DNA of 33,094 bases from IMG/VR virus record IMGVR_UViG_3300029338_000016. One strand, given 5' to 3'. Below are positions 2,235 to 33,094 of the stretch, piece by piece. Numbering within the stretch: the stretch's first letter is position 1; each line of letters begins with the position of its first letter. A model generated the notes under the pieces. That model did not search any database. It saw only the letters and a list, made by a program, of their open reading frames with translations, and had not been told where the DNA came from. Origin of the DNA: a virus. Made by a program: the position numbers and the translations under genes.

Positions 2235-2696
2235 TTATGTTATCTCTTCCCACTTCGTCGAATTGACGCGCGGGGAATAGACGGAAGATTTGAAGTGCTG
2301 GGCGACGCATACCCACTTCTTCCCGTTGTGCGTTACCTTTGTTCCCTCCGTGATTACTTCGCCGTCCGGAAGGTCAGCCCATGCGCCAATCTGCTCTTCG
2401 GTCGGTGTGCGCGTCCATTTGTCCGGATTTGAAGCAGGGGATTTTCCACGGCTGTAATGCGTTGCCGTGTAGCTCACGCCGTCAAGCGTTACCACGTCGC
2501 CCGTGATATAGCTTTTCTTCTCGTTCCACTCTTCGCCTTGCTCCGGAAGGGAAACAAGGTTATTGCGGATACTCGAAATAATGCTTTCTTCGGTTTCGGC
2601 GCGGGCGGCTTCAACCTCCGCCATGATCGAAGCGCGCAAGGCTTCAAGCTCTGCCGCGCCGATCTGCTTTTCGCTCTTCTTGTGTGTTACGCTCAT
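2235..2696 (-). CDS. Fibre-associated protein with two CBM5/12-like carbohydrate-binding repeats
   Basis: YITGDVVTLDGVSYTATHY...PDKW and GTKVTHNGKKWVCVAQHF...STKW repeats. An ATGA overlap joins it to the upstream gene. Confidence 0.6.
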   Translation of the reverse strand: MSVTHKKSEKQIGAAELEALRASIMAEVEAARAETEESIISSIRNNLVSLPEQGEEWNEKKSYITGDVVTLDGVSYTATHYSRGKSPASNPDKWTRTPTEEQIGAWADLPDGEVITEGTKVTHNGKKWVCVAQHFKSSVYSPRVNSTKWEEIT

Positions 2697-4432
2697 TCAA
2701 AATTCCCCCCGATCCCCGATACCCAGCAAGCGGTCAGCGCGTCGCCGCGCTGGACGGTTACGCGGATATTCATTCCGTACTGTGCCGCCGTGTTGATCTT
2801 ATTTGTGAAAACGTGTGCAACGCCTTGAACAACCGCGTTCGTGCAATCCTCCCAAACGGGGGAAGCGTCAAACGGATTGTTCGTCGCTTCAACCTTGAAC
2901 GTGCCGCCCGCCGGAATATCTCGCGTTACCTTGATATTCGCGCGTGTCGGCTGGCTGTTGGCTTCCAGCGGCGCTGAAAGCGTGATAACGAAGCCCGCAA
3001 TCGACTTCGTGAACGTCAGCGTCCGGACGGCGCTATTTCCTGCGCTGTCGGTCGCCGTAATTGTGATCGTGTGCTTTGCGTTCGTAAGCGCCGTGAAGGT
3101 ATTTCCGGAAACGGAAAGCGTCTGCGTCGCGCCCAGCGTGATCGCGTTCTTCGTCGCGATTGTCTTTCCGTCGATCTTTTCAACAACGTTCACCGTGTCG
3201 CCGTCCGGATCGGTTACGCTGTATTGATAGGTGAAATCGGCGCGCTTGATCCCAAGATCGGCATTACTGCCGGAAATCACGGGCGGCTGGTTATGGATTA
3301 CGGCAATATCTCCGCTTGTGGTGTATGCGGAATAATTGCCGTAGCTGTCCTTTGCGCGGACGCGGTATTTTAACGTGTTCCACGCGGTCGATACCGCTTC
3401 CGTGAACGTCCTGCTTGCGGACGCTTGAACCTGTGTCCACGCGCCGCTGTTGTATGAGCGCTCGAAACAATAGGTCAGCGCGTCGCCGTCCGGATCGGTC
3501 GCCGCCGCGCAAGAAATGTTGATGTTCTGCCCGCTGTAACACGTTGCTGGCGCGGTAATGCTGGGCGGCGCGGAAGGCGCGGAATTGTAGATTACCGTAT
3601 AATTTCCGTCGCTGTTCGGGCTGTCAGATACCAAGATAGAAGATTTAAGATTACAAAGCGGGCGAACGCCATTAGTGCCGTCGTACGCGCTGTAGTAGTT
3701 CAAAGAGCCGTCCGAACCGACGCTGCGGACGTTGCGGGCGTTCGACGAACTAGGCGTCCGAAGCCACCAATACCAGCCCTTTGACGTGCTGAAACTGCTG
3801 TTCGTGTATCCGTCGGCGTTGTTCACGCATTGCGCCGTAGGATAAGCAACGCGGGAAGCGTCGTTGCTGAATAGCGCAAGAAGCGATCCTTCCGCGATAT
3901 TGTTTTCATTCGCAAGCCCCACTTCGGTGGTGGACGCAAGAAACATTTTCGCCTTGAAGGTTTCGTAACTGCCGCCGTCGGTCGAAGATTTAACAACGGT
4001 CAGCGTTGTTTCCATAAGCTCCGCAACAAACTTCGGATCAAGCATTGCAAGGAAGCCCGCCCACGAAGTGTACGGATTATACGTTACGTGCGTGTTCTTC
4101 GTCGTCGGCGCTTGATCCGCGCTGTGCTTTGCGCTGTACCATGCGCCCGCCGTCGCGTTGCTATTCAGCCATTGCAGAAGGTTTGAATAGATATGTCGGT
4201 TATTGCCGTAATTCTTGCGGTCGTTGTTGCTGTTGCTCGGTTCTTTCGCGTCGGAAGCCATGTTCTGAATGATCTTTTCCGTAATCAGCGTTACGGAATT
4301 CGACGGGTAGCCGCTGTGGTTCTTGTCGGCGATCTTGAAAACGATCTTTGATCCGAAGCGCGATTGATACGCCGAAAGAACCGGAACTTCAATCTTCGCG
4401 CCCACCGACAAACTGCCTAATGTTTTTGACAT
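2693..4432 (-). CDS. DGR target protein 1: fibre or receptor-binding-like protein. The N-terminal C-type-lectin-like domain carries VR1 (aa 226-259), followed by about 320 aa of Ig/FN3-like repeats.
   Basis: GWYWWLRTP...GVRPLCNLKS resembles the ligand-binding fold typical of DGR targets. VR1 matches the TR. The C-terminal region contains TDPDGD-type repeat domains. Confidence 0.85.
   Translation of the reverse strand: MSKTLGSLSVGAKIEVPVLSAYQSRFGSKIVFKIADKNHSGYPSNSVTLITEKIIQNMASDAKEPSNSNNDRKNYGNNRHIYSNLLQWLNSNATAGAWYSAKHSADQAPTTKNTHVTYNPYTSWAGFLAMLDPKFVAELMETTLTVVKSSTDGGSYETFKAKMFLASTTEVGLANENNIAEGSLLALFSNDASRVAYPTAQCVNNADGYTNSSFSTSKGWYWWLRTPSSSNARNVRSVGSDGSLNYYSAYDGTNGVRPLCNLKSSILVSDSPNSDGNYTVIYNSAPSAPPSITAPATCYSGQNINISCAAATDPDGDALTYCFERSYNSGAWTQVQASASRTFTEAVSTAWNTLKYRVRAKDSYGNYSAYTTSGDIAVIHNQPPVISGSNADLGIKRADFTYQYSVTDPDGDTVNVVEKIDGKTIATKNAITLGATQTLSVSGNTFTALTNAKHTITITATDSAGNSAVRTLTFTKSIAGFVITLSAPLEANSQPTRANIKVTRDIPAGGTFKVEATNNPFDASPVWEDCTNAVVQGVAHVFTNKINTAAQYGMNIRVTVQRGDALTACWVSGIGGNFE
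3656..3757 (-). repeat. DGR variable region VR1 (102 nt)
   Basis: Aligns without gaps to TR 5643-5744 with 11 differences. Ten are at TR adenines on the coding strand and one is C->T. Confidence 0.9.
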
Positions 4433-5472
4433 TGTGCCGCCTCCTTTGATTTCATTAAGCTGTTGTAATACTGATCCGTCCGCCGGATCAAGTGATAGCT
4501 GTTTCCCTTTTCGGCGTGTCCTCTCCAGCTTTGATAGGATTGTTCAACGGTCTTTGCGTCGATCCGTCCCGCCGCGTGAAGGGCGGCTAATTTCTTCAAC
4601 TTCCGCTTCATATTGTTCTTGCTCCTGCGGCGCACCTTGCGGATCACCGCGCCGCTTTCGGTCAAGTATGTATGAAAGCCCAAGAAATCAACGCCGTGTT
4701 TCAAGGGAAAGATATTCGTTTTCGCATTCAGCGAAAGCCCGCGCGCCTGTACGAACGCTTCAATCTGCTTCCGGCACTCCTGCAAATATGCTTTGTCGTG
4801 ATGGATCAAAAAGAAGTCGTCCATATAGCGCCCGTAATATTTGATACCCAGCTTTTCCTTTACGAAGTGATCCAGCCCGTCAAGGTAGAGAAGGGCGAAA
4901 AGTTGTGAAGTTTGATTGCCGATCGGTATTCCGACGTTGCCTTCGGTGCTGTCGATGATAAGATCAATCAGCCACAAAACGTCCGGATCGGTTATCTTCT
5001 CGCGGATTAAGGTTTTCAAAACGTCGTGCCGGATCGAATAGAAATACTTTGAAATATCGCCTTTCAGTATCCAGCCGTCAATTCCGTTCTTCCTGTAAAA
5101 CCTCCGCATGAACTCTTGAAGCCTGTCTAACCCGTAATGCGTACCTTTCCCCACCTGCGACGCGTAGTTATCGCGAATGAACGATCGTGTCAAAATCGGT
5201 TCAAGCACGTTATCGCAAAGCGAATGTTGAACAACCTTGTCTTTGTAGCTGTTCGACATAACCACGCGGCGCTTCGGCTCGTATACCTCGAACGTGTTAT
5301 ACGGGGACATGGTATAGCGCTTCGTTCTGATCTGCGCGCTTAATAGGTTCAGCGCTTCAAGAAGATTAACTTCAAACTTTGCCGCCGCTCCTTTCCACCT
5401 CTTGCCTTGCCGCGCCTTTCGGTAGGCATTGTATAGGCTTTCAAAACTGTGTATCTTTTCAAAGTCTGTCAT
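4417..5472 (-). CDS. DGR reverse transcriptase
   Basis: IGNQTSQ motif (the I/LGxxxSQ hallmark of DGR RTs) and YMDD. Start chosen at MTDFEKIH (ATG at 5472, gagga RBS). The longer ORF to 5583 covers the TR-RT spacer. Confidence 0.92.
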   Translation of the reverse strand: MTDFEKIHSFESLYNAYRKARQGKRWKGAAAKFEVNLLEALNLLSAQIRTKRYTMSPYNTFEVYEPKRRVVMSNSYKDKVVQHSLCDNVLEPILTRSFIRDNYASQVGKGTHYGLDRLQEFMRRFYRKNGIDGWILKGDISKYFYSIRHDVLKTLIREKITDPDVLWLIDLIIDSTEGNVGIPIGNQTSQLFALLYLDGLDHFVKEKLGIKYYGRYMDDFFLIHHDKAYLQECRKQIEAFVQARGLSLNAKTNIFPLKHGVDFLGFHTYLTESGAVIRKVRRRSKNNMKRKLKKLAALHAAGRIDAKTVEQSYQSWRGHAEKGNSYHLIRRTDQYYNSLMKSKEAAQCQKH

Positions 5473-5642
5473 AATAAAAAATCCTCGCTGTTTATAACCT
5501 TTGCCAGCCGCCGGAAGGCGGTATGCTCCGGTATCGGCGATCCTGTATTCGTCCCCGCCGTGGATAGCGGCGACGGGATACACCTTCCTTTGATGGTGGT
5601 ATTCTGCTTTCGGCTGTGCCTACTCGTTCACATAGTCCACCG

Positions 5643-5744
5643 AAGCGGGCGAACGCCATTGTTGCCGTTGTACGCGTTGTTGTTGTTCAAAGAGCCGTCC
5701 GAATTGACGTTGCGGACGTTGTTGGCGTTCGACGAATTAGGCGT
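5643..5744 (-). repeat. DGR template repeat (TR)
   Basis: On the coding strand it reads TPNSSNANNVRNVNSDGSLNNNNAYNGNNGVRPL, with 13 AAY codons and 29 adenines. It is invariant relative to two VR copies that differ almost only at these A positions. Confidence 0.9.
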
Positions 5745-7306: not shown

Positions 7307-8428
7307 TTATTTCGTAATCTGCCGAATTTGTGTCAGAAGCGCGGGCAAGCTCTCGCCGAAGGTAATATCTATTTCTTCGCCGCTGGTTTCGTAGGTTTCC
7401 GCAATCTCCGTTATGCGAACGTCAATGCGGACGTTCCAGCGCTTATTGATACACGTTACCCGATCGCCTAAATCGTAATCCGTGCCGTACTTCAAATTCG
7501 CGTTCGTGTTGATCTTCGATCCGAAAGCAAGCGTTTCCGCGTATTGCTCCAGCTCTTCAACGCCGCGCGCGGAAAGAAGCGCTAAATACTGCGCCGTTGT
7601 AAGCGTTACGGTCTGCCCGCTCTCGTTTTCGTATTCCTGCACGATGTCCGTTGCATTGATGAAAACTTCGTCGCGGGAAAGCCCCGCCGCGCTTCCTCCG
7701 ACTTCCGCAACCTTCCGCGCAACGCCTTCTTTTTCCTCTCCGCCGATGTAAGCCGTTGTTTTAAGGTTTTCAATACTGTTCGTGTATTCCTGTTCCACGA
7801 TGTTGTCAAATTCCTGTGAAAAGATACAAGGCGCGTTTCCTGCGGCATTTCCCGCCGTAAGGTCGCGCCCTTTGTAAACGGAAAAGGTGTGCTTTCCCGT
7901 CCGTGCGTTTGTTGTAACCCGAATACCCAGCTTCGCCGCCTTCGCCGCCGTTTCCGCCGCAAGCTGGGCGTTCACGTACTGTTCGGAAGTATAGTCGATC
8001 TGCCCGCTTCCGGTGTCTGCGTCGGTCGTGGATATGCTGAAATTCGGGATATTGCGCGCCGCTCCTGCGTTCGTGCAAGTCTGCTTCACAATGGCGTATA
8101 GAATGTTCTGTGTCGTGTCCTTCGTGATGATCTGCGTTGTCAAAATGCGCTTGCCGATCCACGAAAGCAGGAACTTTCCTTGAACCTCTATTTCCTCCAT
8201 GCCCTGTGAATTTTTCGTAATGTGAATATAGCGGATTTCCGCCGCTTCTTTCCCGCCGCGCTTGATGATGATATTTTCCTTCACCAGCAAGCGGGCGTGA
8301 TCCTCCGTGAAGGGAACAAGCAACTTGAATTCGCCGCAACTCCAATAACGCCGCGTCCATATCAAGGACGAAATCTTTTCGACGATCCCTTGAAGTGTCA
8401 TATCACGGCTATAAACGTATAATTCCAC
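7307..8428 (-). CDS. Siphovirus Gp37-like tail-tip protein (Tal position)
   Basis: GTG start giving (M)ELYVYSRDMTLQGIVEKISSLIWTRRYWSCGEFKL, the typical N-terminus of this family. GGGGGTG RBS. The ORF-track extension to 8551 overlaps Dit. Confidence 0.7.
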   Translation of the reverse strand: MELYVYSRDMTLQGIVEKISSLIWTRRYWSCGEFKLLVPFTEDHARLLVKENIIIKRGGKEAAEIRYIHITKNSQGMEEIEVQGKFLLSWIGKRILTTQIITKDTTQNILYAIVKQTCTNAGAARNIPNFSISTTDADTGSGQIDYTSEQYVNAQLAAETAAKAAKLGIRVTTNARTGKHTFSVYKGRDLTAGNAAGNAPCIFSQEFDNIVEQEYTNSIENLKTTAYIGGEEKEGVARKVAEVGGSAAGLSRDEVFINATDIVQEYENESGQTVTLTTAQYLALLSARGVEELEQYAETLAFGSKINTNANLKYGTDYDLGDRVTCINKRWNVRIDVRITEIAETYETSGEEIDITFGESLPALLTQIRQITK

Positions 8429-23400: not shown

Positions 23401-23477
23401 TTCCGGAAGGAAAAGCGCTGGTCGTAAAACTTTACACATTTACAAGGCTTTTTATTGCGCCCCTTCGGGCGTTCCCG

Positions 23478-24218
23478 CTATTCACGTTTCTTCCGTCGTT
23501 TTGGCTTCTCCGGTTCGCGTACATATTTATAATATATGTAGCCCCACTTCGTCGCGCGGGCTTCCACCAGCTTGTAACCCTTCGGCGCGATCGGTGCTTT
23601 CTTTTCCGTATACGTCCGAAGTGCAAGCGTCGGCGCTTCCTTCTCCGGCTGGCGAAGATTGCGCGTCGCCTTCCAACGGTGTCCGCCCTGTTCCGGTGTC
23701 CAATGGTTGAAGAGGTAATCCGCAAGCCCCGTGTAATCCTGCCCGTAGTCAACGCCGTTATAATAATTGTGTTCGCGCAAGTGCCGGATATGGATTACTG
23801 ATCCGTCATTCCACTTGCCGCTGATCGTTTCTTCCGGTATGCCGTCTGAAATCATGTGAAAATGAATTCGGTTCGTAGACTTGCCGCGCCCCATGTAAAT
23901 AATGATCTTCGCGTCTGGACAAGCCCTTTGAAGCCGCCGGAAGTAATTGTCGCGTATTCTGCGCGCTTCGCTGAATGTATGAACTTCGCTGTCGTCGTCG
24001 AACGTCAGCGTACTATATAAGGAAAGCGGCGAAAAATTTTCATTAACCAGCCGCTGGTGTTTCCGTTTTGATATGCCGATCCGGTGTTGCGCGCGCTCTT
24101 CGTCGTCCTTGAAGCGCGGTCGCGGTTCAGCCTTCTTGATGTTTGTTCGATCGGATACGGTGTAAACCTCTTGTTCACATACAACGCCCGAAAAAATACG
24201 TCTTTTAACCCTCTGCAT
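23478..24218 (-). CDS. HUH-type rolling-circle replication initiator-like protein
   Basis: LYSTLTFDDD resembles motif 1 and RIHFHMISDG resembles the HUH motif 2. Tyr-rich C-terminal half and basic tail. ATG at 24218. Confidence 0.55.
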   Translation of the reverse strand: MQRVKRRIFSGVVCEQEVYTVSDRTNIKKAEPRPRFKDDEERAQHRIGISKRKHQRLVNENFSPLSLYSTLTFDDDSEVHTFSEARRIRDNYFRRLQRACPDAKIIIYMGRGKSTNRIHFHMISDGIPEETISGKWNDGSVIHIRHLREHNYYNGVDYGQDYTGLADYLFNHWTPEQGGHRWKATRNLRQPEKEAPTLALRTYTEKKAPIAPKGYKLVEARATKWGYIYYKYVREPEKPKRRKKRE

Positions 24219-24235: not shown

Positions 24236-24264
24236 TTGACAAAAGCGCCGTAAAATGCTATAAT
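24236..24264 (+). promoter_or_regulatory. Consensus sigma-70 promoter on the plus strand: TTGACA - 17 nt - TGcTATAAT
   Basis: -35 at 24236-24241, extended -10 TG at 24256-24257, -10 at 24259-24264. It lies in the 5' leader of the minus-strand rep gene and points away from it. Confidence 0.75.
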
Positions 24265-24269
24265 TTTTA

Positions 24270-24348
24270 ATATTGAATAGCTCCTTTTACAGCTATGTAA
24301 GAGGAAAAGAGAACGTCCGGAACGTCGCAACCGGACGTTCTCTTTTTT
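24270..24348 (+). ncRNA. Predicted ~80-nt small RNA whose 5' end is an anti-RBS seed (AAUAUUGAAUAGCUCCUUUU)
   Basis: Bounded by the consensus promoter and an intrinsic terminator. No ORF. The seed is the reverse complement of the initiation regions of four minus-strand genes. Confidence 0.55.
24309..24348. terminator. Bidirectional intrinsic terminator
   Basis: Perfect 12-bp stem gagaacgtccgg / ccggacgttctc with a 10-nt loop. TTTTTTGTTTT follows on the plus strand and TTTTCCTCTT on the minus strand, after the CDS ending at 24355. Confidence 0.8.
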
Positions 24349-24354
24349 GTTTTG

Positions 24355-24747: not shown

Positions 24748-24880
24748 TGTTCCCGCCGCCCCTCCGAAGCGCTCTGAAAAGCACGTTCAAAACGATGTAG
24801 ACGATCACAACGGAAGCGGCGACGCAAGCAACGCCGCAAAGCATATAAAAGGCGTTCACCATGAATTGATACATTGTCAT
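24734..24880 (-). CDS. Small (48 aa) single-TM protein
   Basis: MTMYQFMVNAFYMLCGVACVAASVVIVYIVLNVLFRALRRGGGNNGRY. An ATGA overlap joins it to the upstream gene, and its 3' end overlaps the next start. Confidence 0.5.
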   Translation of the reverse strand: MTMYQFMVNAFYMLCGVACVAASVVIVYIVLNVLFRALRRGGGNNGRY

Positions 24881-25515
24881 TCGTCAGCCCTCCCGAAAAC
24901 CTCTTCCGCGTCGATGTCCCACGCGGCGGCAATGTGCTTCATCATATCGACGGCTTCGGCGCGCTTCTTCTGTTCCTCTGCGTTCTCGCCGTTTAAGTAC
25001 GATACCAAGATTTCAGATTTGAGATTGCAAAGCGGGCGAACGCCATTGCCGCCGCCGAACGCAGGGCTGTAGTTCAAAGAGCCGTCCGAATAGACGTTAC
25101 GGACGAAAGAATTTATCGGGCTGTCCGGTGTAGCCGTCCACCACCAACGATCCGGAAGCGCCGGAGTGTTGCCGCGCAAAAGGCGGTATTCCTCGCAAGT
25201 GATAAGCCCGATCCGGACGCGATCGCCGCCGTAATTCTTCAAGCCGTCGTCGGCGGTCAAGTCGATGTTGAAATACTCGAACATTTCTTCCGGCGCGCCC
25301 GCCTTAATCAGACGGCGCAAGAATTCGCCGTTCAGATAGGCGCGAAGGGAAGAAGCGGCAAAGTCGTTCTTGTTCCCTTCATCGAAGGCGCGTTCCTCGA
25401 CGCAATCGGAAGTAATGCACTTCACCCAATCCGCGCCCGTCTGAATGACCGTCCAAGCGATCCCGCCCATTGTGAATTCCTGTTTCGGCTCGAAGCCGTG
25501 TTTGTTCTCTTTCAT
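24877..25515 (-). CDS. DGR target protein 2: small (212 aa) C-type-lectin-like protein carrying VR2 (aa 138-162); early-region, non-structural context
   Basis: RWWWTATP...VRNVYSDGSLNYSPAFGGGNGVRPLCNLKSEILVS is paralogous to the VR domain of target 1. Start at MKENKHGF (ATG at 25515) behind the shared RBS motif. The ORF-track extension to 25638 overlaps the MazG-like gene. Confidence 0.8.
   Translation of the reverse strand: MKENKHGFEPKQEFTMGGIAWTVIQTGADWVKCITSDCVEERAFDEGNKNDFAASSLRAYLNGEFLRRLIKAGAPEEMFEYFNIDLTADDGLKNYGGDRVRIGLITCEEYRLLRGNTPALPDRWWWTATPDSPINSFVRNVYSDGSLNYSPAFGGGNGVRPLCNLKSEILVSYLNGENAEEQKKRAEAVDMMKHIAAAWDIDAEEVFGRADE
25030..25104 (-). repeat. DGR variable region VR2 (75 nt, matches the 3' three-quarters of the TR)
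   Basis: Gap-free alignment to TR 5643-5717 with 12 differences, 10 at TR adenines and 2 C->T. Homology to the TR is lost upstream of GTCCGTAACGTC. Confidence 0.85.
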
Positions 25516-25534
25516 ATTGAATAGCTCCTTTCCT

Positions 25535-25867
25535 TTAACACTTCTTGCCGCCGTGCCGATACGGGCGGCTTTTGTTGTATTCGTGCTTCTGTGAGATCGC
25601 CGCGTCAATGTCGATCCCTGCGTATCCGCAATAATCAAGAACGCGAATAATCACGTCCGCAAGCTCCGTCGGGATACCTTCGGGCTTGCCGCTGTCGCTG
25701 AAATAGATTTCTGTTGCGCCGTGTCCGTTGCGGTATTCCTCCAGCGCTTCGGATACCTCCGAATGAATGAGCGCTAAAACCTCCGGAAATCCGCGTTCTT
25801 CGTCCCACCAGCCGTGGGCGACGGCGTTTTCGTGAATTTCCTTCGCAACCTCGTTAATACCTGTCAT
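25535..25867 (-). CDS. MazG-like nucleotide pyrophosphohydrolase
   Basis: EIHENAVAHGWWDE...LIHSEVSEALEE...ELADVIIRVLDY motifs. Confidence 0.8.
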   Translation of the reverse strand: MTGINEVAKEIHENAVAHGWWDEERGFPEVLALIHSEVSEALEEYRNGHGATEIYFSDSGKPEGIPTELADVIIRVLDYCGYAGIDIDAAISQKHEYNKSRPYRHGGKKC

Positions 25868-26643: not shown

Positions 26644-27314
26644 TCGTCCGCCACCTCGCTTTCCTCGACAACCTCGCCCGTGTCCGGATCAACGTTCAAG
26701 GAACATTGTTCCGGTTCTGTGAATGTGAAGCGGTCGCGGGCTTCGCGTTCCCTGCGTTCCTTTTCGGAAAGGGAAAATTCGCATTCCCGCGTTAAGCCCT
26801 GCAAGCTCTCCACGAACTGCTGATTGATAACGTCATACGGCATAATCACCGCTTGAAGCAGGAAGCCCGCCTTCGCGACGATGTAGGGCGCTCCCTCCGC
26901 CGTGCGGCGTTCGTAAAGCTCCAGCACGTCCAGCACGTCAGCAACGGGCGAAAGATAGCGGCTTTCGATGAATACCAGCCCGCGCGTTGTGCGGATCGGC
27001 TTCAAGGTTCGTCCGGAATAGATGATCGAAATTCCTTCCCGCTCGACGTGTCTTTCCGTTTCGTCTGTGTCCTCGAAACTGATACCCGCCGGAACGCCCA
27101 GCGTTTTCACAAAGTAATTATCGCGGTCTTTCTCCGGAACGTCGAAGATCGTCAAAAGGCTTTCTTTGTCAAGCTGGGGAAGCCCGACAACCGGATAAAC
27201 CGCCGATCCGTCGCCGATGTACTGCGTTAATATGTCGCCGTCGTTGCTGTACCGCTCGAAGATCGCAATATTCTTGTTCTTCTTGCAGATAGCGGCGATA
27301 CTTTTAATCTTCAT
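26640..27314 (-). CDS. Hypothetical protein (224 aa, acidic C-terminus)
   Basis: ORF with a GGAGGG RBS. No family was recognised. Confidence 0.65.
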   Translation of the reverse strand: MKIKSIAAICKKNKNIAIFERYSNDGDILTQYIGDGSAVYPVVGLPQLDKESLLTIFDVPEKDRDNYFVKTLGVPAGISFEDTDETERHVEREGISIIYSGRTLKPIRTTRGLVFIESRYLSPVADVLDVLELYERRTAEGAPYIVAKAGFLLQAVIMPYDVINQQFVESLQGLTRECEFSLSEKERREREARDRFTFTEPEQCSLNVDPDTGEVVEESEVADE

Positions 27315-27567
27315 CTTCGCCGCCCTCCGTTTCCTCTGCGTCCGCGTCGTGCCGTTCTACAATAGCCGGAAAGTCAATGCGCGGCGCGCGGATCGCCAGC
27401 GCGATTTGGCAACCGCAAACCGGACAATCAACCGCCGAAAAGCGCGTCGGTGCTTTCGTCAGCATATCCGCCATAGAACGCGGTTCTTCCGCCGTGTAGA
27501 TGTTTTCCCGCTCCGGTGTGAAGCGATAGCCGCAAACGCGGCATTCTGTCTTTTTCTTGCTGAACAT
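27304..27567 (-). CDS. Small zinc-ribbon protein (87 aa)
   Basis: CRVCGY...CPVCGC. Start at MFSKKK (ATG at 27567) behind the shared RBS motif. Confidence 0.6.
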   Translation of the reverse strand: MFSKKKTECRVCGYRFTPERENIYTAEEPRSMADMLTKAPTRFSAVDCPVCGCQIALAIRAPRIDFPAIVERHDADAEETEGGEDED

Positions 27568-27592
27568 AATTGAATAGCTCCTTTCGTGTGAT

Positions 27593-27909: not shown

Positions 27910-28926
27910 TTAATCTGTGTACGGGCTTTCAAGCGTCCAGCCGAAGCAATCCGTACTTTTCCATTTCATTGTGAAGTGATTGCGCCGCCCGTCGCCCGTG
28001 AAGAAGCAGTATTCCGCCGGAAGCACCCGCCCGACGTTTTCTTCGCCGTCCCGCTCCGCGCGGTATCGTGTCAGCACGTCCGCCGCAAGAAGGGCGAATT
28101 CCTCTTTCACGGGATATTCGGGATCGTAGCCGCTGAACTGATAGGGCGCTTCGATAACCTCCAGCACCGTGTCGGGGAAGCGCGGATCGTCAACGCGGTT
28201 CAGAACGCACCATACAACCGCCGCTTGCTCCGTCGTAGAAGGAACGATCCCCGCTTCGCCGTAGATCAGCTTTGCAAGGGCTTCAACCTCCGCCGTGTTC
28301 GGCACATATCCCGCCACCGTCCCGCTCGAAGGAAGAAGAACGGCGGTCGGCTGGTGTACCTCTTCAAGCGTTCCGGCGGTCGTATCCTTCGGCTTGTCCG
28401 CCGCACCGCTCCCGCTCCACGGCATAAGCGCCGCAAGAAGGGCGGCGACGGTCAGCAACGCAACCGTAAGGGCGACGCGACGGCGAAGCATTGCCCGCCG
28501 CCGTCGTTGTGCCACCTCCGCCGCCGGAAGGGAAAGCCACCATTCCGGATTGTTCCGGAACTGCTCATTCGCGCAAGCGTCGCAATTCTCCGCCGTGCAG
28601 GAAGAGCAATAACGCTTCTGAAAAGCCGCGTCCCACGGCGCTTCAATGCAAGGAAGGGAACGAAGGAAGCCCGCCAGCGTGGGCTTGTCCTTCGTGATAG
28701 CGTCAAATACCGAAGTGAACTGCCGAACGTTCAAAACTTCGTCGCCGATAATGCACCCGTTCGCGATCTGCTCTTTGATGAACTCAACGCACGGCATTTC
28801 CTCCGAAACGTGAAGATCATTGAACCGCGCTTCCGCTTCCTCGAAGCTGTCGAAGGTAACGGCGTTTGCGACGGACGCTTCGCCGTCGTATTCCCATAAA
28901 CGGATTTTGTATCGTGTTGTACTCAT
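27910..28926 (-). CDS. Membrane-anchored SleB-type cell-wall hydrolase: N-terminal unknown domain, one TM, C-terminal hydrolase
   Basis: LIYGEAGIVPSTTEQAAVVWCVLNRVDDPRFPDTVLEVIEAPYQFSGY resembles the SleB/Hydrolase_2 core. TM segment RRVALTVALLTVAALLAALMPW. Start at MSTTRYK (ATG at 28926) behind the shared RBS motif. Confidence 0.7.
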   Translation of the reverse strand: MSTTRYKIRLWEYDGEASVANAVTFDSFEEAEARFNDLHVSEEMPCVEFIKEQIANGCIIGDEVLNVRQFTSVFDAITKDKPTLAGFLRSLPCIEAPWDAAFQKRYCSSCTAENCDACANEQFRNNPEWWLSLPAAEVAQRRRRAMLRRRVALTVALLTVAALLAALMPWSGSGAADKPKDTTAGTLEEVHQPTAVLLPSSGTVAGYVPNTAEVEALAKLIYGEAGIVPSTTEQAAVVWCVLNRVDDPRFPDTVLEVIEAPYQFSGYDPEYPVKEEFALLAADVLTRYRAERDGEENVGRVLPAEYCFFTGDGRRNHFTMKWKSTDCFGWTLESPYTD

Positions 28927-28948
28927 TCCGAATAGCTCCTTTCCCGCG

Positions 28949-29179
28949 TTACTCTTCAATGCCGATATAAAGCACGTTTTCATCGGCGCGAAGCTCCGTG
29001 ATCTTGCAATATGCGTATTTGTTCATTTCGTCGTGTGCGAAGTGCTTATACAAGCCCCTGTAAATGTCCCGCTTCTGATAGCCGCATTCCCGAACGTAGA
29101 TATACACGTTCGTAAATCCGCTAATTACGTAGCCGATCGTTTGAAGTGCCACGTTGTTTGCGATCCTCTTCATCTTCAT
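28949..29179 (-). CDS. Small hypothetical protein (76 aa)
   Basis: Start at MKMKRIANN (ATG at 29179) behind the shared RBS motif. Confidence 0.55.
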   Translation of the reverse strand: MKMKRIANNVALQTIGYVISGFTNVYIYVRECGYQKRDIYRGLYKHFAHDEMNKYAYCKITELRADENVLYIGIEE

Positions 29180-29201
29180 ATTGAATAGCTCCTTTCGTAT
29201 T

Positions 29202-29599: not shown

Positions 29600-30637
29600 T
29601 CAAGCGGCTTCGGCGACGTATCTTTCAAAGAGCGATCCGGACGTTTCAAAGCCTAAAATCTCGCGCGGGTAATTGTTGATCCACGTTTCGACGCGCTGAA
29701 TATATGCGGCGGTTACTTTCCGGAAGTCTGTTCCTTTCGGCAAGAACCGCCGTATCATTTTGTTTATGTTCTCGTTCGTGCCGCGTTCGTATGCGCTGTA
29801 CGGGTGGCAATAGTAAACCTTCGTGCGCTTCCGGTCTTTGCCGTAGATGGATTTTTCAATTCCGGCGCAATCCATAAATTCCGATCCGTTGTCAAACGTA
29901 ATGCTTTTGAATATCTGTGAAAACTTCTTCCCGAAGCGGCGTTCTAATTTGTTCAGCGCCGCCACGACGCTGGCGGCGGTCTGATCCGGCATTTTGATAA
30001 TAATTTCGTTCCGCGTCAAGCGCTCCGAAAGAACGAACAAGGTTTCCTTCGTCCGCTTCTTCCCGCATACGCAATCGCCTTCCCAATGTCCGAAGGTCTG
30101 CCGATCGTTGATTTCCTGCGGGCGTTCTTCTATGCTTTCGCCTTGCGGCGCGCGGGCGGCTTTCTTCCGCTCCACCTTGTCATACTTCCGCTTTCGCTCT
30201 CCGTGTTCCGGCAAGCTCTCGCGGCTGATCCCGTAGAATATGCCTTTGTCGATGTAATTATAGATCGTCTTTTCGCTGATCTCCGTTTTGAAGGTCAGCC
30301 CCAGCCGCTTGATTTCTCCGACGACGGCGGCGGGGGAATAGCCTTCTTCGCCGATCTTCTTTTCGATGAAGGCGGATAATTCGTAATCGTTGCCGATCTT
30401 CAATTCGCCGCCTTTGGCTTTTAGGTTCTCTTCATAGCGCTGTTGCGCGATCTCCGGCGAATAGCGTTCTTCGGTCGTCAAGTCGGAATTCAAATGCGTG
30501 TAGCGTCCGCGCTTCAACTCCCTGTATATCGTTGTGTTGTGGACGTGCAGACGGTCGGCAATCGCGCACGGCTTTAAGCCCTCTTTCAATCCCTTTTCGA
30601 TCTTTAGGCGATCCGTCCATGTTAAGTGTTTGTGCAT
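29600..30637 (-). CDS. IS30-family DDE transposase
   Basis: N-terminal HTH, then GHWEGD...FDNGSEF...ERGTNENINKMIRRFLPKG (DDE triad context). ATG at 30637 after GGAGGA. Confidence 0.9.
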   Translation of the reverse strand: MHKHLTWTDRLKIEKGLKEGLKPCAIADRLHVHNTTIYRELKRGRYTHLNSDLTTEERYSPEIAQQRYEENLKAKGGELKIGNDYELSAFIEKKIGEEGYSPAAVVGEIKRLGLTFKTEISEKTIYNYIDKGIFYGISRESLPEHGERKRKYDKVERKKAARAPQGESIEERPQEINDRQTFGHWEGDCVCGKKRTKETLFVLSERLTRNEIIIKMPDQTAASVVAALNKLERRFGKKFSQIFKSITFDNGSEFMDCAGIEKSIYGKDRKRTKVYYCHPYSAYERGTNENINKMIRRFLPKGTDFRKVTAAYIQRVETWINNYPREILGFETSGSLFERYVAEAA

Positions 30638-30662
30638 TCTTTCTTCCTCCGGCTTCCGAATA

Positions 30663-30692
30663 TGACAAAAGGGCGGCATTTCTGCCGCCCTT
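30663..30692 (-). terminator. Intrinsic terminator after hicB
   Basis: 10-bp stem aagggcggca / tgccgccctt with a 4-nt loop, followed on the minus strand by TTGTCATATT. Confidence 0.65.
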
Positions 30693-31355: not shown

Positions 31356-31384
31356 ATTATACGCCTTCAATGCGTATATGTCAA
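31356..31384 (-). promoter_or_regulatory. Consensus promoter TTGACA - 17 nt - TATAAT for hicAB, with a palindromic operator-like sequence in the spacer
   Basis: On the minus strand the -35 is at 31384-31379 and the -10 at 31361-31356. The spacer contains TATACGC-attgaag-GCGTATA. Confidence 0.7.
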
Positions 31385-31433: not shown

Positions 31434-31458
31434 CGGCGGCGGGATCACCCCGCCGCCG
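31434..31458 (-). terminator. Intrinsic terminator after the XRE gene
   Basis: 10-bp GC stem cggcggcggg / cccgccgccg with a 5-nt loop, followed on the minus strand by TTATCTTTTAT. Confidence 0.6.
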
Positions 31459-31704
31459 TTATTCGTCTATACCTAAAAGCCAATTTACCGAAACGCCCAG
31501 CACTTCCGAAAATACTTTCAATTCAAAGTCAGATACAAAGCGCGTTCCGATCTCTATTCGGCTTATGCTGTCCCGCTCCATGTTGATCCCTTTGATCTGT
31601 ATTCGTGCGGCTAAATCCTCTTGCCGTAAGCGCTGGACGACGCGCGCTTCGCGCAATCGGTCGCCGCATATATTTTTCTTTCCATCGTAATCGTATATCT
31701 TCAT
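31459..31704 (-). CDS. XRE-family HTH transcriptional regulator (Cro/CI-like)
   Basis: GDRLREARVVQRLRQEDLAARIQIKGINMERDSISRIEIG is a canonical HTH_3 pattern. Confidence 0.85.
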   Translation of the reverse strand: MKIYDYDGKKNICGDRLREARVVQRLRQEDLAARIQIKGINMERDSISRIEIGTRFVSDFELKVFSEVLGVSVNWLLGIDE

Positions 31705-32898: not shown

Positions 32899-33094
32899 TG
32901 TTTGTATCCTCGCTTTCTGTTATGTCGATTTTTTCTTTTTTCTTGATCCTGCCGATAATTACTTCGGCAATACGCTTCATCATCATTGCGCCACATTCAA
33001 TCACGACGGCGCGGAAATACCATTCGATCAGAACGGTTTGTTCCTGCCGCGTGATAAGGAATGAAACGTACTGTGCGATGATGAAAGCCGCCGT
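32888..33094 (-). CDS. 3' part of the same junction-spanning two-TM protein (its 5' end runs off the window end)
   Basis: Same reading frame through the 123-bp overlap. The TGA stop at 32888-32890 overlaps the start of the next gene by 11 nt. Confidence 0.6.
   Translation of the reverse strand, partial: TAAFIIAQYVSFLITRQEQTVLIEWYFRAVVIECGAMMMKRIAEVIIGRIKKKEKIDITESEDTNNDY
32972..33094. repeat. Second copy of the 123-bp terminal overlap
   Basis: Identical to 1-123. Confidence 0.95.

Follow-up and report, generated by a model that had tools for sequence, protein, structure and literature searches.

RNAII of the rolling-circle plasmid pMV158 is a small RNA transcribed antisense to the region upstream of an HUH-type initiator gene, repB. 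It has a single-stranded 5' tail of 17 nt, a hairpin that serves as terminator, and a U-run; the sequence that blocks initiation lies in the tail rather than in a kissing loop (PMC4485353). By analogy, RNAII offers the closest architecture for the subject of this work, a predicted small RNA (sRNA) of ~80 nt encoded just upstream of the rep gene in IMG/VR virus record IMGVR_UViG_3300029338_000016, a 33,094-nt stretch of DNA referred to here as the window. The predicted sRNA has the same features, with a tail of ~12 nt. RNAII covers the initiation region of repB itself and has a single target (PMC4485353), whereas the phage sRNA has its promoter between itself and the rep start, and its tail matches a repeated sequence, here called a tag, at four unlinked gene starts. 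In addition, the phage sRNA contains an extra hairpin, its replicon is a 33-kb tailed prophage, and it has no sequence or structure homology with RNAII.

Two phage RNAs, sar of P22 and c4 of P1/P7, pair around the ribosome-binding site (RBS) of the early gene ant and stop its translation. Each of them controls one adjacent gene or operon, and differences in c4 complementarity underlie the heteroimmunity of P1 and P7 (PMC12197685). The predicted sRNA, in contrast, matches a tag on several dispersed genes, lies in the leader of rep, and belongs to phages of Gram-positive anaerobes. Its lineage-specific seeds parallel P1/P7 heteroimmunity, and two prophages with different seeds (loci L083 and L111) occupy one host genome. 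Regulation of several early messages as a set is known from phage T4, in which the protein repressor RegA recognizes loosely similar initiation sites. As with RegA, one phage product would serve many initiation regions; unlike RegA, the effector proposed here is an RNA, and the tags are near-identical over 13-20 nt.

The tags themselves find their counterpart in the start-associated sequences (SAS) of cluster K mycobacteriophages, an asymmetric repeat that overlaps the Shine-Dalgarno sequence (SD) near the starts of non-structural genes of different families, always in one orientation. The function of SAS is unknown, and their authors left open a phage-encoded RNA or protein as the partner (PMC3203893). 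By this comparison the tags would be an analogue of SAS and not a member: the SAS consensus is GGGATAGGAGCCC rather than GAAAGGAGCTATTCAAT, there are 11-19 SAS copies compared with 1-4 detected per locus here, and a cognate antisense RNA is unreported for SAS, whereas a candidate partner is encoded in the same genome here (PMC3203893).

The sRNA would work like a countertranscript with an added trans regulon and is a member of no described family. In the reading that we consider likely, it is a countertranscript-like RNA, antisense to the rep leader, that would also block initiation on tagged early mRNAs. The elements of the transcription unit are as follows.

24236-24241, plus strand: -35 hexamer (TTGACA) of the sRNA promoter, directed away from rep, whose start codon is 17 nt distant.
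24256-24264, plus strand: extended -10 TGcTATAAT of the sRNA promoter, with a 17-nt spacer after the -35.
24270-24353, plus strand: predicted sRNA, ~80 nt, with its start placed at 24270-24272 and its 3' end in the T-run 24343-24353.
24270-24288, plus strand: 5' tail/seed of the sRNA, AUAUUGAAUAGCUCCUUUU, the complement of SD-spacer-AU(G).
24282-24305, plus strand: hairpin 1 of the sRNA (UCCUUUUACA / UGUAAGAGGA), a predicted fold that contains the anti-SD part of the seed.
24306-24353, plus strand: intrinsic terminator, with a 15-bp stem (24306-24320 / 24331-24345), a 10-nt loop, and TTTTTTGTTTT.

Perfect 12/12 σ70 promoters (TTGACA-N16-18-TATAAT) occur twice on the two strands of the 33-kb window, at 24236 (plus) and at 31384 (minus); first-order Markov simulations of the window give a chance of 0.007 per window. 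The 5' end of the sRNA was placed by the usual spacing, 7 nt past the -10. About 42 nt separate the -10 from the hairpin. An earlier note, made from the sequence alone, had claimed a consensus extended -10 promoter on the plus strand and no open reading frame (ORF) between promoter and hairpin; the promoter is indeed present at 24236-24264 with its 17-nt spacer, and the interval holds only ATG-TAA and hence no ORF. The hairpin, which that note gave as 12 bp, is perfect as claimed, and its length was slightly understated: the stem has 13 perfect pairs (AGAGAACGTCCGG / CCGGACGTTCTCT), or 15 with the flanking A-U pairs, and the T-tail TTTTTTGTTTT runs to 24353. The predicted fold of the transcript consists of a 12-nt free 5' tail, hairpin 1, and the 15-bp terminator (-37 kcal/mol, z = -8.2). 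Together, promoter, terminator, and fold suggest that the phage very probably makes an RNA of ~80 bases from just upstream of rep; both its production and its exact 5' end are here inferred from the sequence.

A search of the sRNA region against Rfam gave no family at the gathering threshold. The best model on the plus strand is ctRNA_pGA1 (RF00236) at 24285-24352, with 22.3 bits against a gathering score of 45 and E = 0.03 in a 401-nt search, and the match rests mainly on the terminator hairpin; judged by this score, the region is not a ctRNA_pGA1 member. The resemblance to the pT181/pMV158 countertranscripts proposed in the earlier note thus holds for position and architecture and fails for homology, and the sRNA does not overlap the rep initiation region. 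The unit nevertheless resembles a countertranscript RNA in being antisense to the rep leader (if rep is read through from upstream), in having its own promoter and intrinsic terminator, and in falling within 50-150 nt. As in trans-acting sRNAs, it is free of ORFs, has a conserved seed with a 12-nt unpaired tail, and maintains its complementarity to its targets, with loci L172 and L059 as partial exceptions.

The minus-strand sequence AAAAGGAGCTATTCAATATT (24288-24269), which is the complement of the sRNA 5' end, reappears at four minus-strand gene starts.

25513-25532, minus strand: tagged initiation region GAAAGGAGCTATTCAATATG of the 212-aa DUF6273 gene (24877-25515); 18 contiguous nt pair with the seed, -27.4 kcal/mol.
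27565-27585, minus strand: tagged initiation region GAAAGGAGCTATTCAATtATG of the 87-aa CxxC gene (27304-27567); 16 nt, -24.5 kcal/mol.
28924-28943, minus strand: tagged initiation region GGAAAGGAGCTATTCggaATG of the 338-aa gene (27910-28926); 13 contiguous nt, -24.0 kcal/mol.
29177-29196, minus strand: tagged initiation region GAAAGGAGCTATTCAATATG of the 76-aa gene (28949-29179); 18 nt, -27.1 kcal/mol.

The tag is the asymmetric repeat GAAAGGAGCTATTCAAT, located a few nt upstream of non-structural gene starts in a single orientation. A 20-mer search allowing up to 3 mismatches found the 4 sites, compared with 0.00 expected. The runs of complementarity are exactly those given in the earlier note (18, 18, 16, and 13 contiguous nt at 25515, 29179, 27567, and 28926). 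Scoring against all initiation regions, which that note had proposed, sets the four targets (-24.0 to -27.4 kcal/mol) clear of the 132 candidate starts, among which the next best reaches -16.5 and the median is -9.2 kcal/mol. The tag at 27567 is GAAAGGAGCTATTCAATATG plus one extra T. At 28926 the pairing can be extended by two G-U pairs, both A-to-G changes in this tag being G-U compatible.

Two of the tagged genes had been singled out in the earlier note. For the SleB-like hydrolase, the 338-aa protein carries a C-terminal cell-wall hydrolase domain, matching Pfam Hydrolase_2. The other gene was thought to be a second target of a diversity-generating retroelement (DGR). Such an element is present (2693-5744), with a reverse transcriptase gene at 4417-5583, a DUF6273 target gene at 2693-4432, and a 102-nt repeat pair (5643-5744 / 3656-3757) that is 88% identical. 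A weaker third copy of the repeat (68%) does lie at 25030-25131, inside the sRNA-target gene 24877-25515. Compared with the template over the repeat and 25-nt flanks, its differences are not confined to A positions, and it is possible but unproven that the tagged DUF6273 gene is a second live DGR target.

The unit was compared across 122 loci that encode Rep relatives. In prophages of Oscillospiraceae, an antisense unit upstream of rep and pointing away from it is found in about 17 sequence lineages, at Rep identities of 48-100%. These lineages have a -35 of the form TTGAC[AT] or TTGnnn, a spacing of exactly 17 nt, and a TG-extended -10, while the spacer sequence is free to differ. The -10 stays within TAnnnT (TATAAT, TATACT, TACAAT, TAATAT, TATTAT, TATATT, TAGTAT, and TACTAT). 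Every lineage with the unit has a terminator hairpin of 12-22 bp located 57-95 nt past the inferred start, and the stems represent at least 6 unrelated sequences. Where scoring is clean, the sRNA strand is the one that carries the T-run, with 6-9 T of 10 compared with 0-4 on the rep strand; for A-L038, C, E, F, N, and O the hairpin finder counted A/U tracts as part of the stem, and the tail counts are valid only for the other lineages.

Structure is conserved as well. A joint MAFFT alignment of 19 representative sRNAs gave no pairs with RNAalifold, the unrelated terminators being out of register, and a usable consensus structure comes from the subgroup of lineages E to H only. Within this subgroup the terminator shows four compensatory pairs and hairpin 1 shows two, and some G-U pairs form only on the sRNA strand. 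Hairpin 1 varies from A-U to G-U (L008) and to G-C (L038), with the pair kept on the sRNA strand in each case. Most of the 17 representatives that were folded show a free 5' tail of ~7-17 nt, a short hairpin, and then the terminator. In lineage A (51 loci, 23 distinct sequences), the -35, the -10, and a 16-nt core, UUGAAUAGCUCCUUUU, are invariant, and 5 of the ~8 positions between the -10 and the core vary. An invariant core preceded by variable positions is the pattern expected if transcription starts at the core edge. By all these measures of sequence, promoter and terminator behave as selected elements.

Consensus scans are by themselves no proof of function, and the promoter and terminator matches could in principle be unused, with no stable RNA accumulating and the repeats functionless. 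Such a reading is hardly credible, given the low chance expectation of the promoter (0.007 per window) and of the repeats (0.00) and the retention of the unit, with compensatory change, in about 17 lineages.

Comparison of the lineages also reveals two families of tag. In family 1 (lineages A, B, C, P, and Q), GG(A/G)GCTATTCAA..ATG is present on one to four genes within the sampled flanks; the tag GGAGCTATTCAAT-ATG pairs with the sRNA tail AUUGAAUAGC, and the predicted sRNA begins ..UUGAAUAGC. In family 2 (lineages E, F, G, and H), the tag is GGAGATTGCTATACC-ATG or variants of it, and the predicted sRNA begins GGUAUAGCAAUC. Tags of the GCTATTCAA type and of the GATTGCTATACC type are each found solely alongside an sRNA whose 5' tail complements them. 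The inferred +1 marks the beginning of the complementarity in both families; its other limit, on the mRNA side, is the base preceding the AUG or a position inside it. All cognate duplexes comprise 13-19 pairs with energies of -16 to -31 kcal/mol, and all cover the SD. A matrix of the longest perfect complementarity gives mostly 11-18 nt within a family (L172 and L059 being exceptions) and the background value of 6-10 nt for cross-family or unit-less combinations, save one 12-nt anti-SD match. Exact runs were counted for this purpose because a matrix of duplex energies across lineages is uninformative for GC-rich seeds, many GC-rich pseudo-starts being bound by them.

Changes in tag and sRNA also occur in step within the families. 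Lineage F departs from G and H in three places at once: the tail (GGUAUAAGUAAUC), the tag (GATTACTTATACC), and the partner base within hairpin 1. Lineage E has the tag CCATACC with G in the tail, and G and H have CTATACC with A; lineage B combines the tag GGGGC with the tail GCCC. The tag is kept on orthologous genes at 57-70% protein identity. The DUF6273 gene is orthologous in A, B, and C at about 70% identity, and the B and C orthologues are tagged; the CxxC gene is orthologous in A and B, and the L046 orthologue is tagged. A tagged protein of roughly 550 aa in E, G, and H shows 56-82% identity between full-length orthologues, and a shorter protein in L058 (lineage G) aligns partly.

Locus L042 can be taken as a natural control for the loss of both the unit and the tags: with a Rep of 79% identity, it contains no sRNA unit, and its DUF6273 and CxxC orthologues have ordinary, untagged initiation regions. 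The other unit-less lineages have no repeated tag either. A scan of 2.9 million viral contigs that started from the motif found 95 tagged stretches, and those long enough to reach the sRNA locus include it, apart from three single matches in unrelated contigs, which is about the chance number for a 17-mer, and one 7.9-kb contig, L150 (IMGVR_UViG_3300030032_000341). Single matches aside, L150 is the sole tagged stretch without the sRNA locus. In it three tagged genes remain, but the equivalent of window position 25535 is joined to 851, and the DUF6273 gene, the sRNA, rep, and the entire set of structural genes are absent; it is a defective deletion derivative or a misassembly. Relatives that share the RBS motif and lack the promoter/terminator pair, which the earlier note had named as an argument against its sRNA, are otherwise absent: every motif-bearing lineage except L150 has the pair, and the pair-less relatives are without the motif. 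A divergent case is L172 (IMGVR_UViG_2576861335_000001), in which the unit at ~8100-8350 (tag orientation) has a -35 of TTGCCT, a -10 of TGcTACTAT, and the tail ACUGAAUAGCACUUUC. Three A-type tags are present at this locus. Downstream are one additional gene and an only remotely related HUH Rep, and directly behind the sRNA promoter there is a block similar to CTTGTAAT.

That all copies of the tag share one orientation and covary as a set would also be expected if the sense motif were an operator bound by a protein of phage or host origin, whether a translational repressor of the RegA kind, acting on mRNA, or a DNA-binding regulator, with the antisense promoter secondary. A protein partner was one of the alternatives left open for the cluster K sequences (PMC3203893). 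We regard an operator as quite improbable here, since it leaves unexplained the conserved promoter, the terminator on the sRNA strand, and the fold of tail, hairpin, and terminator. The boundary of the motif coincides with the inferred transcription start, the two A-to-G changes in the 28926 tag are of the kind that preserves RNA pairing through G-U, and no candidate RNA-binding protein was identified among the neighbouring genes.

The gene next to the unit and its leader contain two further features.

23478-24218, minus strand: rep, HUH rolling-circle initiator (phrog_3584, 8.8e-40).
24247-24293, minus strand: inverted repeat GCCGTAAAA (24247-24255) / TTTTACAGC (24285-24293), enclosing the -10 and the seed.

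The HUH motifs Y.TLT, GRGK.T.RIH.H, and DYT.LA.YLF.H occur in order in Rep and are kept in 24 relatives. Pfam REP_ORF2-G2P matches Rep solely below the cut-off, and sequence searches with Rep against solved structures and NCBIfam gave no match. The phrog_3584 match and the HUH motifs, together with the distance of 17 nt to the ATG, bear out the earlier statement that the promoter adjoins an HUH rep gene and fires away from it. No minus-strand promoter is predicted between the terminator and the rep ATG, so rep is probably read from the early operon through the sRNA region. A rep leader read through in this way would be fully complementary to the sRNA. The rep SD and AUG are left uncovered, with the sRNA promoter lying between.

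The arms of the inverted repeat vary by lineage yet stay complementary, reaching 17 nt in L078 and a perfect 9 bp in L019. Compared with shuffled sequences, the observed score is reached by 0-5 of 300 shuffles in 14 of 25 loci, and by 12 of 300 in the window. Because one arm lies upstream of the sRNA start, pairing of the repeat is confined to rep-sense RNA or DNA. It is probably a hairpin of the rep leader whose loop would display the complement of the sRNA tail, the classic geometry of a countertranscript target. As to which strand folds, G-U asymmetry of the repeat gives mixed evidence, with C-A mismatches in the window, L039, L115, L120, and L121 and T-G in L008, L038, and L054. In lineages A, D, I, and J, though not in E-H or M-O, the hairpin is followed by CUUUUGU, and the two might act as an attenuator. 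A leader peptide starting at this fifth, rep-proximal copy of the motif was considered and rejected: close relatives have ATT, ACT, or GTT in place of a start codon, and a frameshifting 1-nt indel also occurs. An ATG mini-ORF of 3-4 codons is present at this copy only in L032 and L059.

An inverted repeat with covarying arms that flanks the -10 and the seed, has one arm outside the sRNA, and adjoins rep might instead, together with its AT-rich loop, be a double-strand origin nicked by the HUH Rep, with its likeness to a promoter and a tag as by-products. The core of the loop, ..AATAGC.., is reminiscent of CTTTAATAGTGG, the nick region of f1 gpII. A better candidate for the Rep nick site, as judged by sequence, is the 22-nt block GCCTTGTAAATGTGTAAAGTTT (23427-23448, minus strand), which lies ~30 nt past the rep stop codon and resembles CTTGATA, the nick core of the pC194 and phiX174 replicons. 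Of 124 loci, 93 have a single copy at this position, some of them from lineages with no sRNA unit (L042, L048-50, L055-57, L065-69, and L102). Furthermore, the -10 varies as a promoter element does (TAnnnT), unlike a fixed nick sequence; an origin has no need of a strand-specific terminator 45-60 nt away; and there would be no sense in four genes having additional nick sites in the SD-ATG interval. An origin upstream of rep is accordingly a very improbable account of the element.

Several observations weigh against the view that the sRNA regulates tagged genes in trans. The arm of the inverted repeat outside the sRNA shows that the region has at least one further function. Eight lineages (D and I-O) have the unit and no tagged gene within the 6-7 kb flank, which indicates that trans targeting is not universal and might favour a role in cis alone. 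In L172 and L059, the tags match the lineage A seed better than the seed of their own sRNA (18 vs 9 and 15 vs 11 contiguous nt, respectively); interrupted duplexes of 13-19 pairs with their own sRNA remain. At the fine scale, then, covariation within the GCTATTCAA family appears imperfect. Moreover, all copies have the same sense, and covariation taken alone fits antisense pairing, a factor that reads the sense motif, or recombinational homogenization. The tag is also found at mosaic junctions: L038 has identical upstream context and a different downstream gene; its tags at 473-491 and 2080-2096 (cf. 29179 and 27567 in the window) run directly into the ATG of the following gene, and the 76-aa and 87-aa genes are absent. 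Finally, a portion of the seed, CUCCUUUU, is predicted to be closed within hairpin 1.

An alternative is a real RNA that acts only in cis, setting rep expression as a countertranscript or through convergent-promoter interference. The tag would then be a portable cassette for strong initiation, spread by recombination, and its copy in the rep leader another relic of that cassette, with no trans regulation. The eight lineages without tagged genes, the mosaic junctions (L038), the imperfect covariation within a family, and the conserved leader hairpin, whose loop displays the complement of the seed as it would in a cis antisense system, can all be cited for it. We nonetheless think it unlikely. 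The rep-proximal copy has no conserved start codon or frame (ATT, ACT, GTT; 1-nt indel), and the identity of the tag runs from the inferred +1 into the anti-SD, which corresponds to the tail as transcribed. Each of the two unrelated tag families matches the sRNA that belongs to it, all three elements covary in lineage F, and L042 has lost unit and tags while retaining the genes. A motif copy that has neither a start codon nor a stable frame and that sits exactly at the 5' end of a conserved unit on the opposite strand tips the balance to the sRNA. Because the unit is also present in the ~8 lineages in which no tagged genes were found, the sRNA probably acted first as an antisense RNA on the rep leader and acquired the regulon later.

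Turning to the genome as a whole, the first and last 123 nt of the window are identical (1-123 and 32972-33094), indicating a complete genome of 32,971 bp; the repeat is either a circular assembly overlap or a terminal repeat. The window is 97-98% identical to GenBank Phage nd12, whose annotation in this region consists entirely of "hypothetical protein" with no RNA gene, and no literature on Phage nd12 was found. The linear nd12 record starts at ACATAGCTGTAAAAGGAGC, and a genome terminus at the motif was considered; it was rejected, as the two ends of the record share 8 nt and have the appearance of a circular assembly opened at an arbitrary point. Near-identical prophages are present in Oscillibacter valericigenes, Hominicoprocola fusiformis, and other Oscillospiraceae. 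The host genome of Oscillospiraceae bacterium CM18GR_63 (JAWQDX01) contains two Rep-family prophages, L083 of lineage A and L111 of lineage D, with different tails. Two seeds in one host genome fit a role in incompatibility or immunity, a match that is only a hint.

The second perfect σ70 promoter of the window (31356-31384, minus strand) follows a small XRE-type gene (31459-31704) and its terminator (31434-31458). It is the probable early promoter, from which the tagged genes and rep would be transcribed. An IS30-family transposase gene (29600-30679, minus strand) lies within the early operon, between the early promoter and the tagged genes, and is also present in nd12.

The favoured reading, a countertranscript that also acts in trans, can be set out as a series of steps. 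Host RNA polymerase would start at the extended -10 promoter, transcribe away from rep, and stop at the intrinsic terminator. In cis, the sRNA would pair with the leader of a rep message read in from the early operon, and its promoter, strong and convergent, may in addition hinder oncoming polymerase. In trans, pairing would nucleate between the free tail and the lineage-specific tag in the SD-AUG spacer of early genes, four of them in this phage, and then extend into the SD by opening hairpin 1. A duplex of 13-19 bp that covers the SD to position -1 should block binding of the 30S subunit and might invite RNase III; repression is the default expectation for such a duplex. The outcome would be timed or lysogen-specific silencing of the tagged genes, combined with control of rep, and the sRNA would act either in the lysogen, in an immunity-like fashion, or in an early shut-off during lytic growth. 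The proposal of the earlier note, that one phage sRNA translationally silences a small regulon, is thus supported by the comparative evidence, with the repression itself deduced from the pairing.

More tentatively, the locus may represent an RNA "address system", in which a lineage-specific tag of 12-18 nt in the SD-AUG spacer is read by an sRNA encoded at rep. If so, seed and tag would be a determinant of immunity or incompatibility and would diversify accordingly, as in the GCTATTCAA and GATTGCTATACC types, and the system would provide the first concrete mechanism for start-associated repeats such as those of the cluster K mycobacteriophages. An sRNA expressed from the prophage would silence the tagged genes and rep in the resident phage and in an incoming phage with the same tag.

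The RNAs sar and c4 act on one neighbouring gene and plasmid countertranscripts on rep alone; here, a single RNA appears to define a regulon based on a tag, and tag and RNA seem to have co-evolved through at least two complete sequence replacements. The sRNA would link replication control to the shut-off of early genes. The finding also suggests that a cognate antisense RNA should be sought behind the start-associated motifs of other phages. If confirmed, it would constitute a compact, programmable RNA switch from the abundant and experimentally neglected Firmicutes of the gut.

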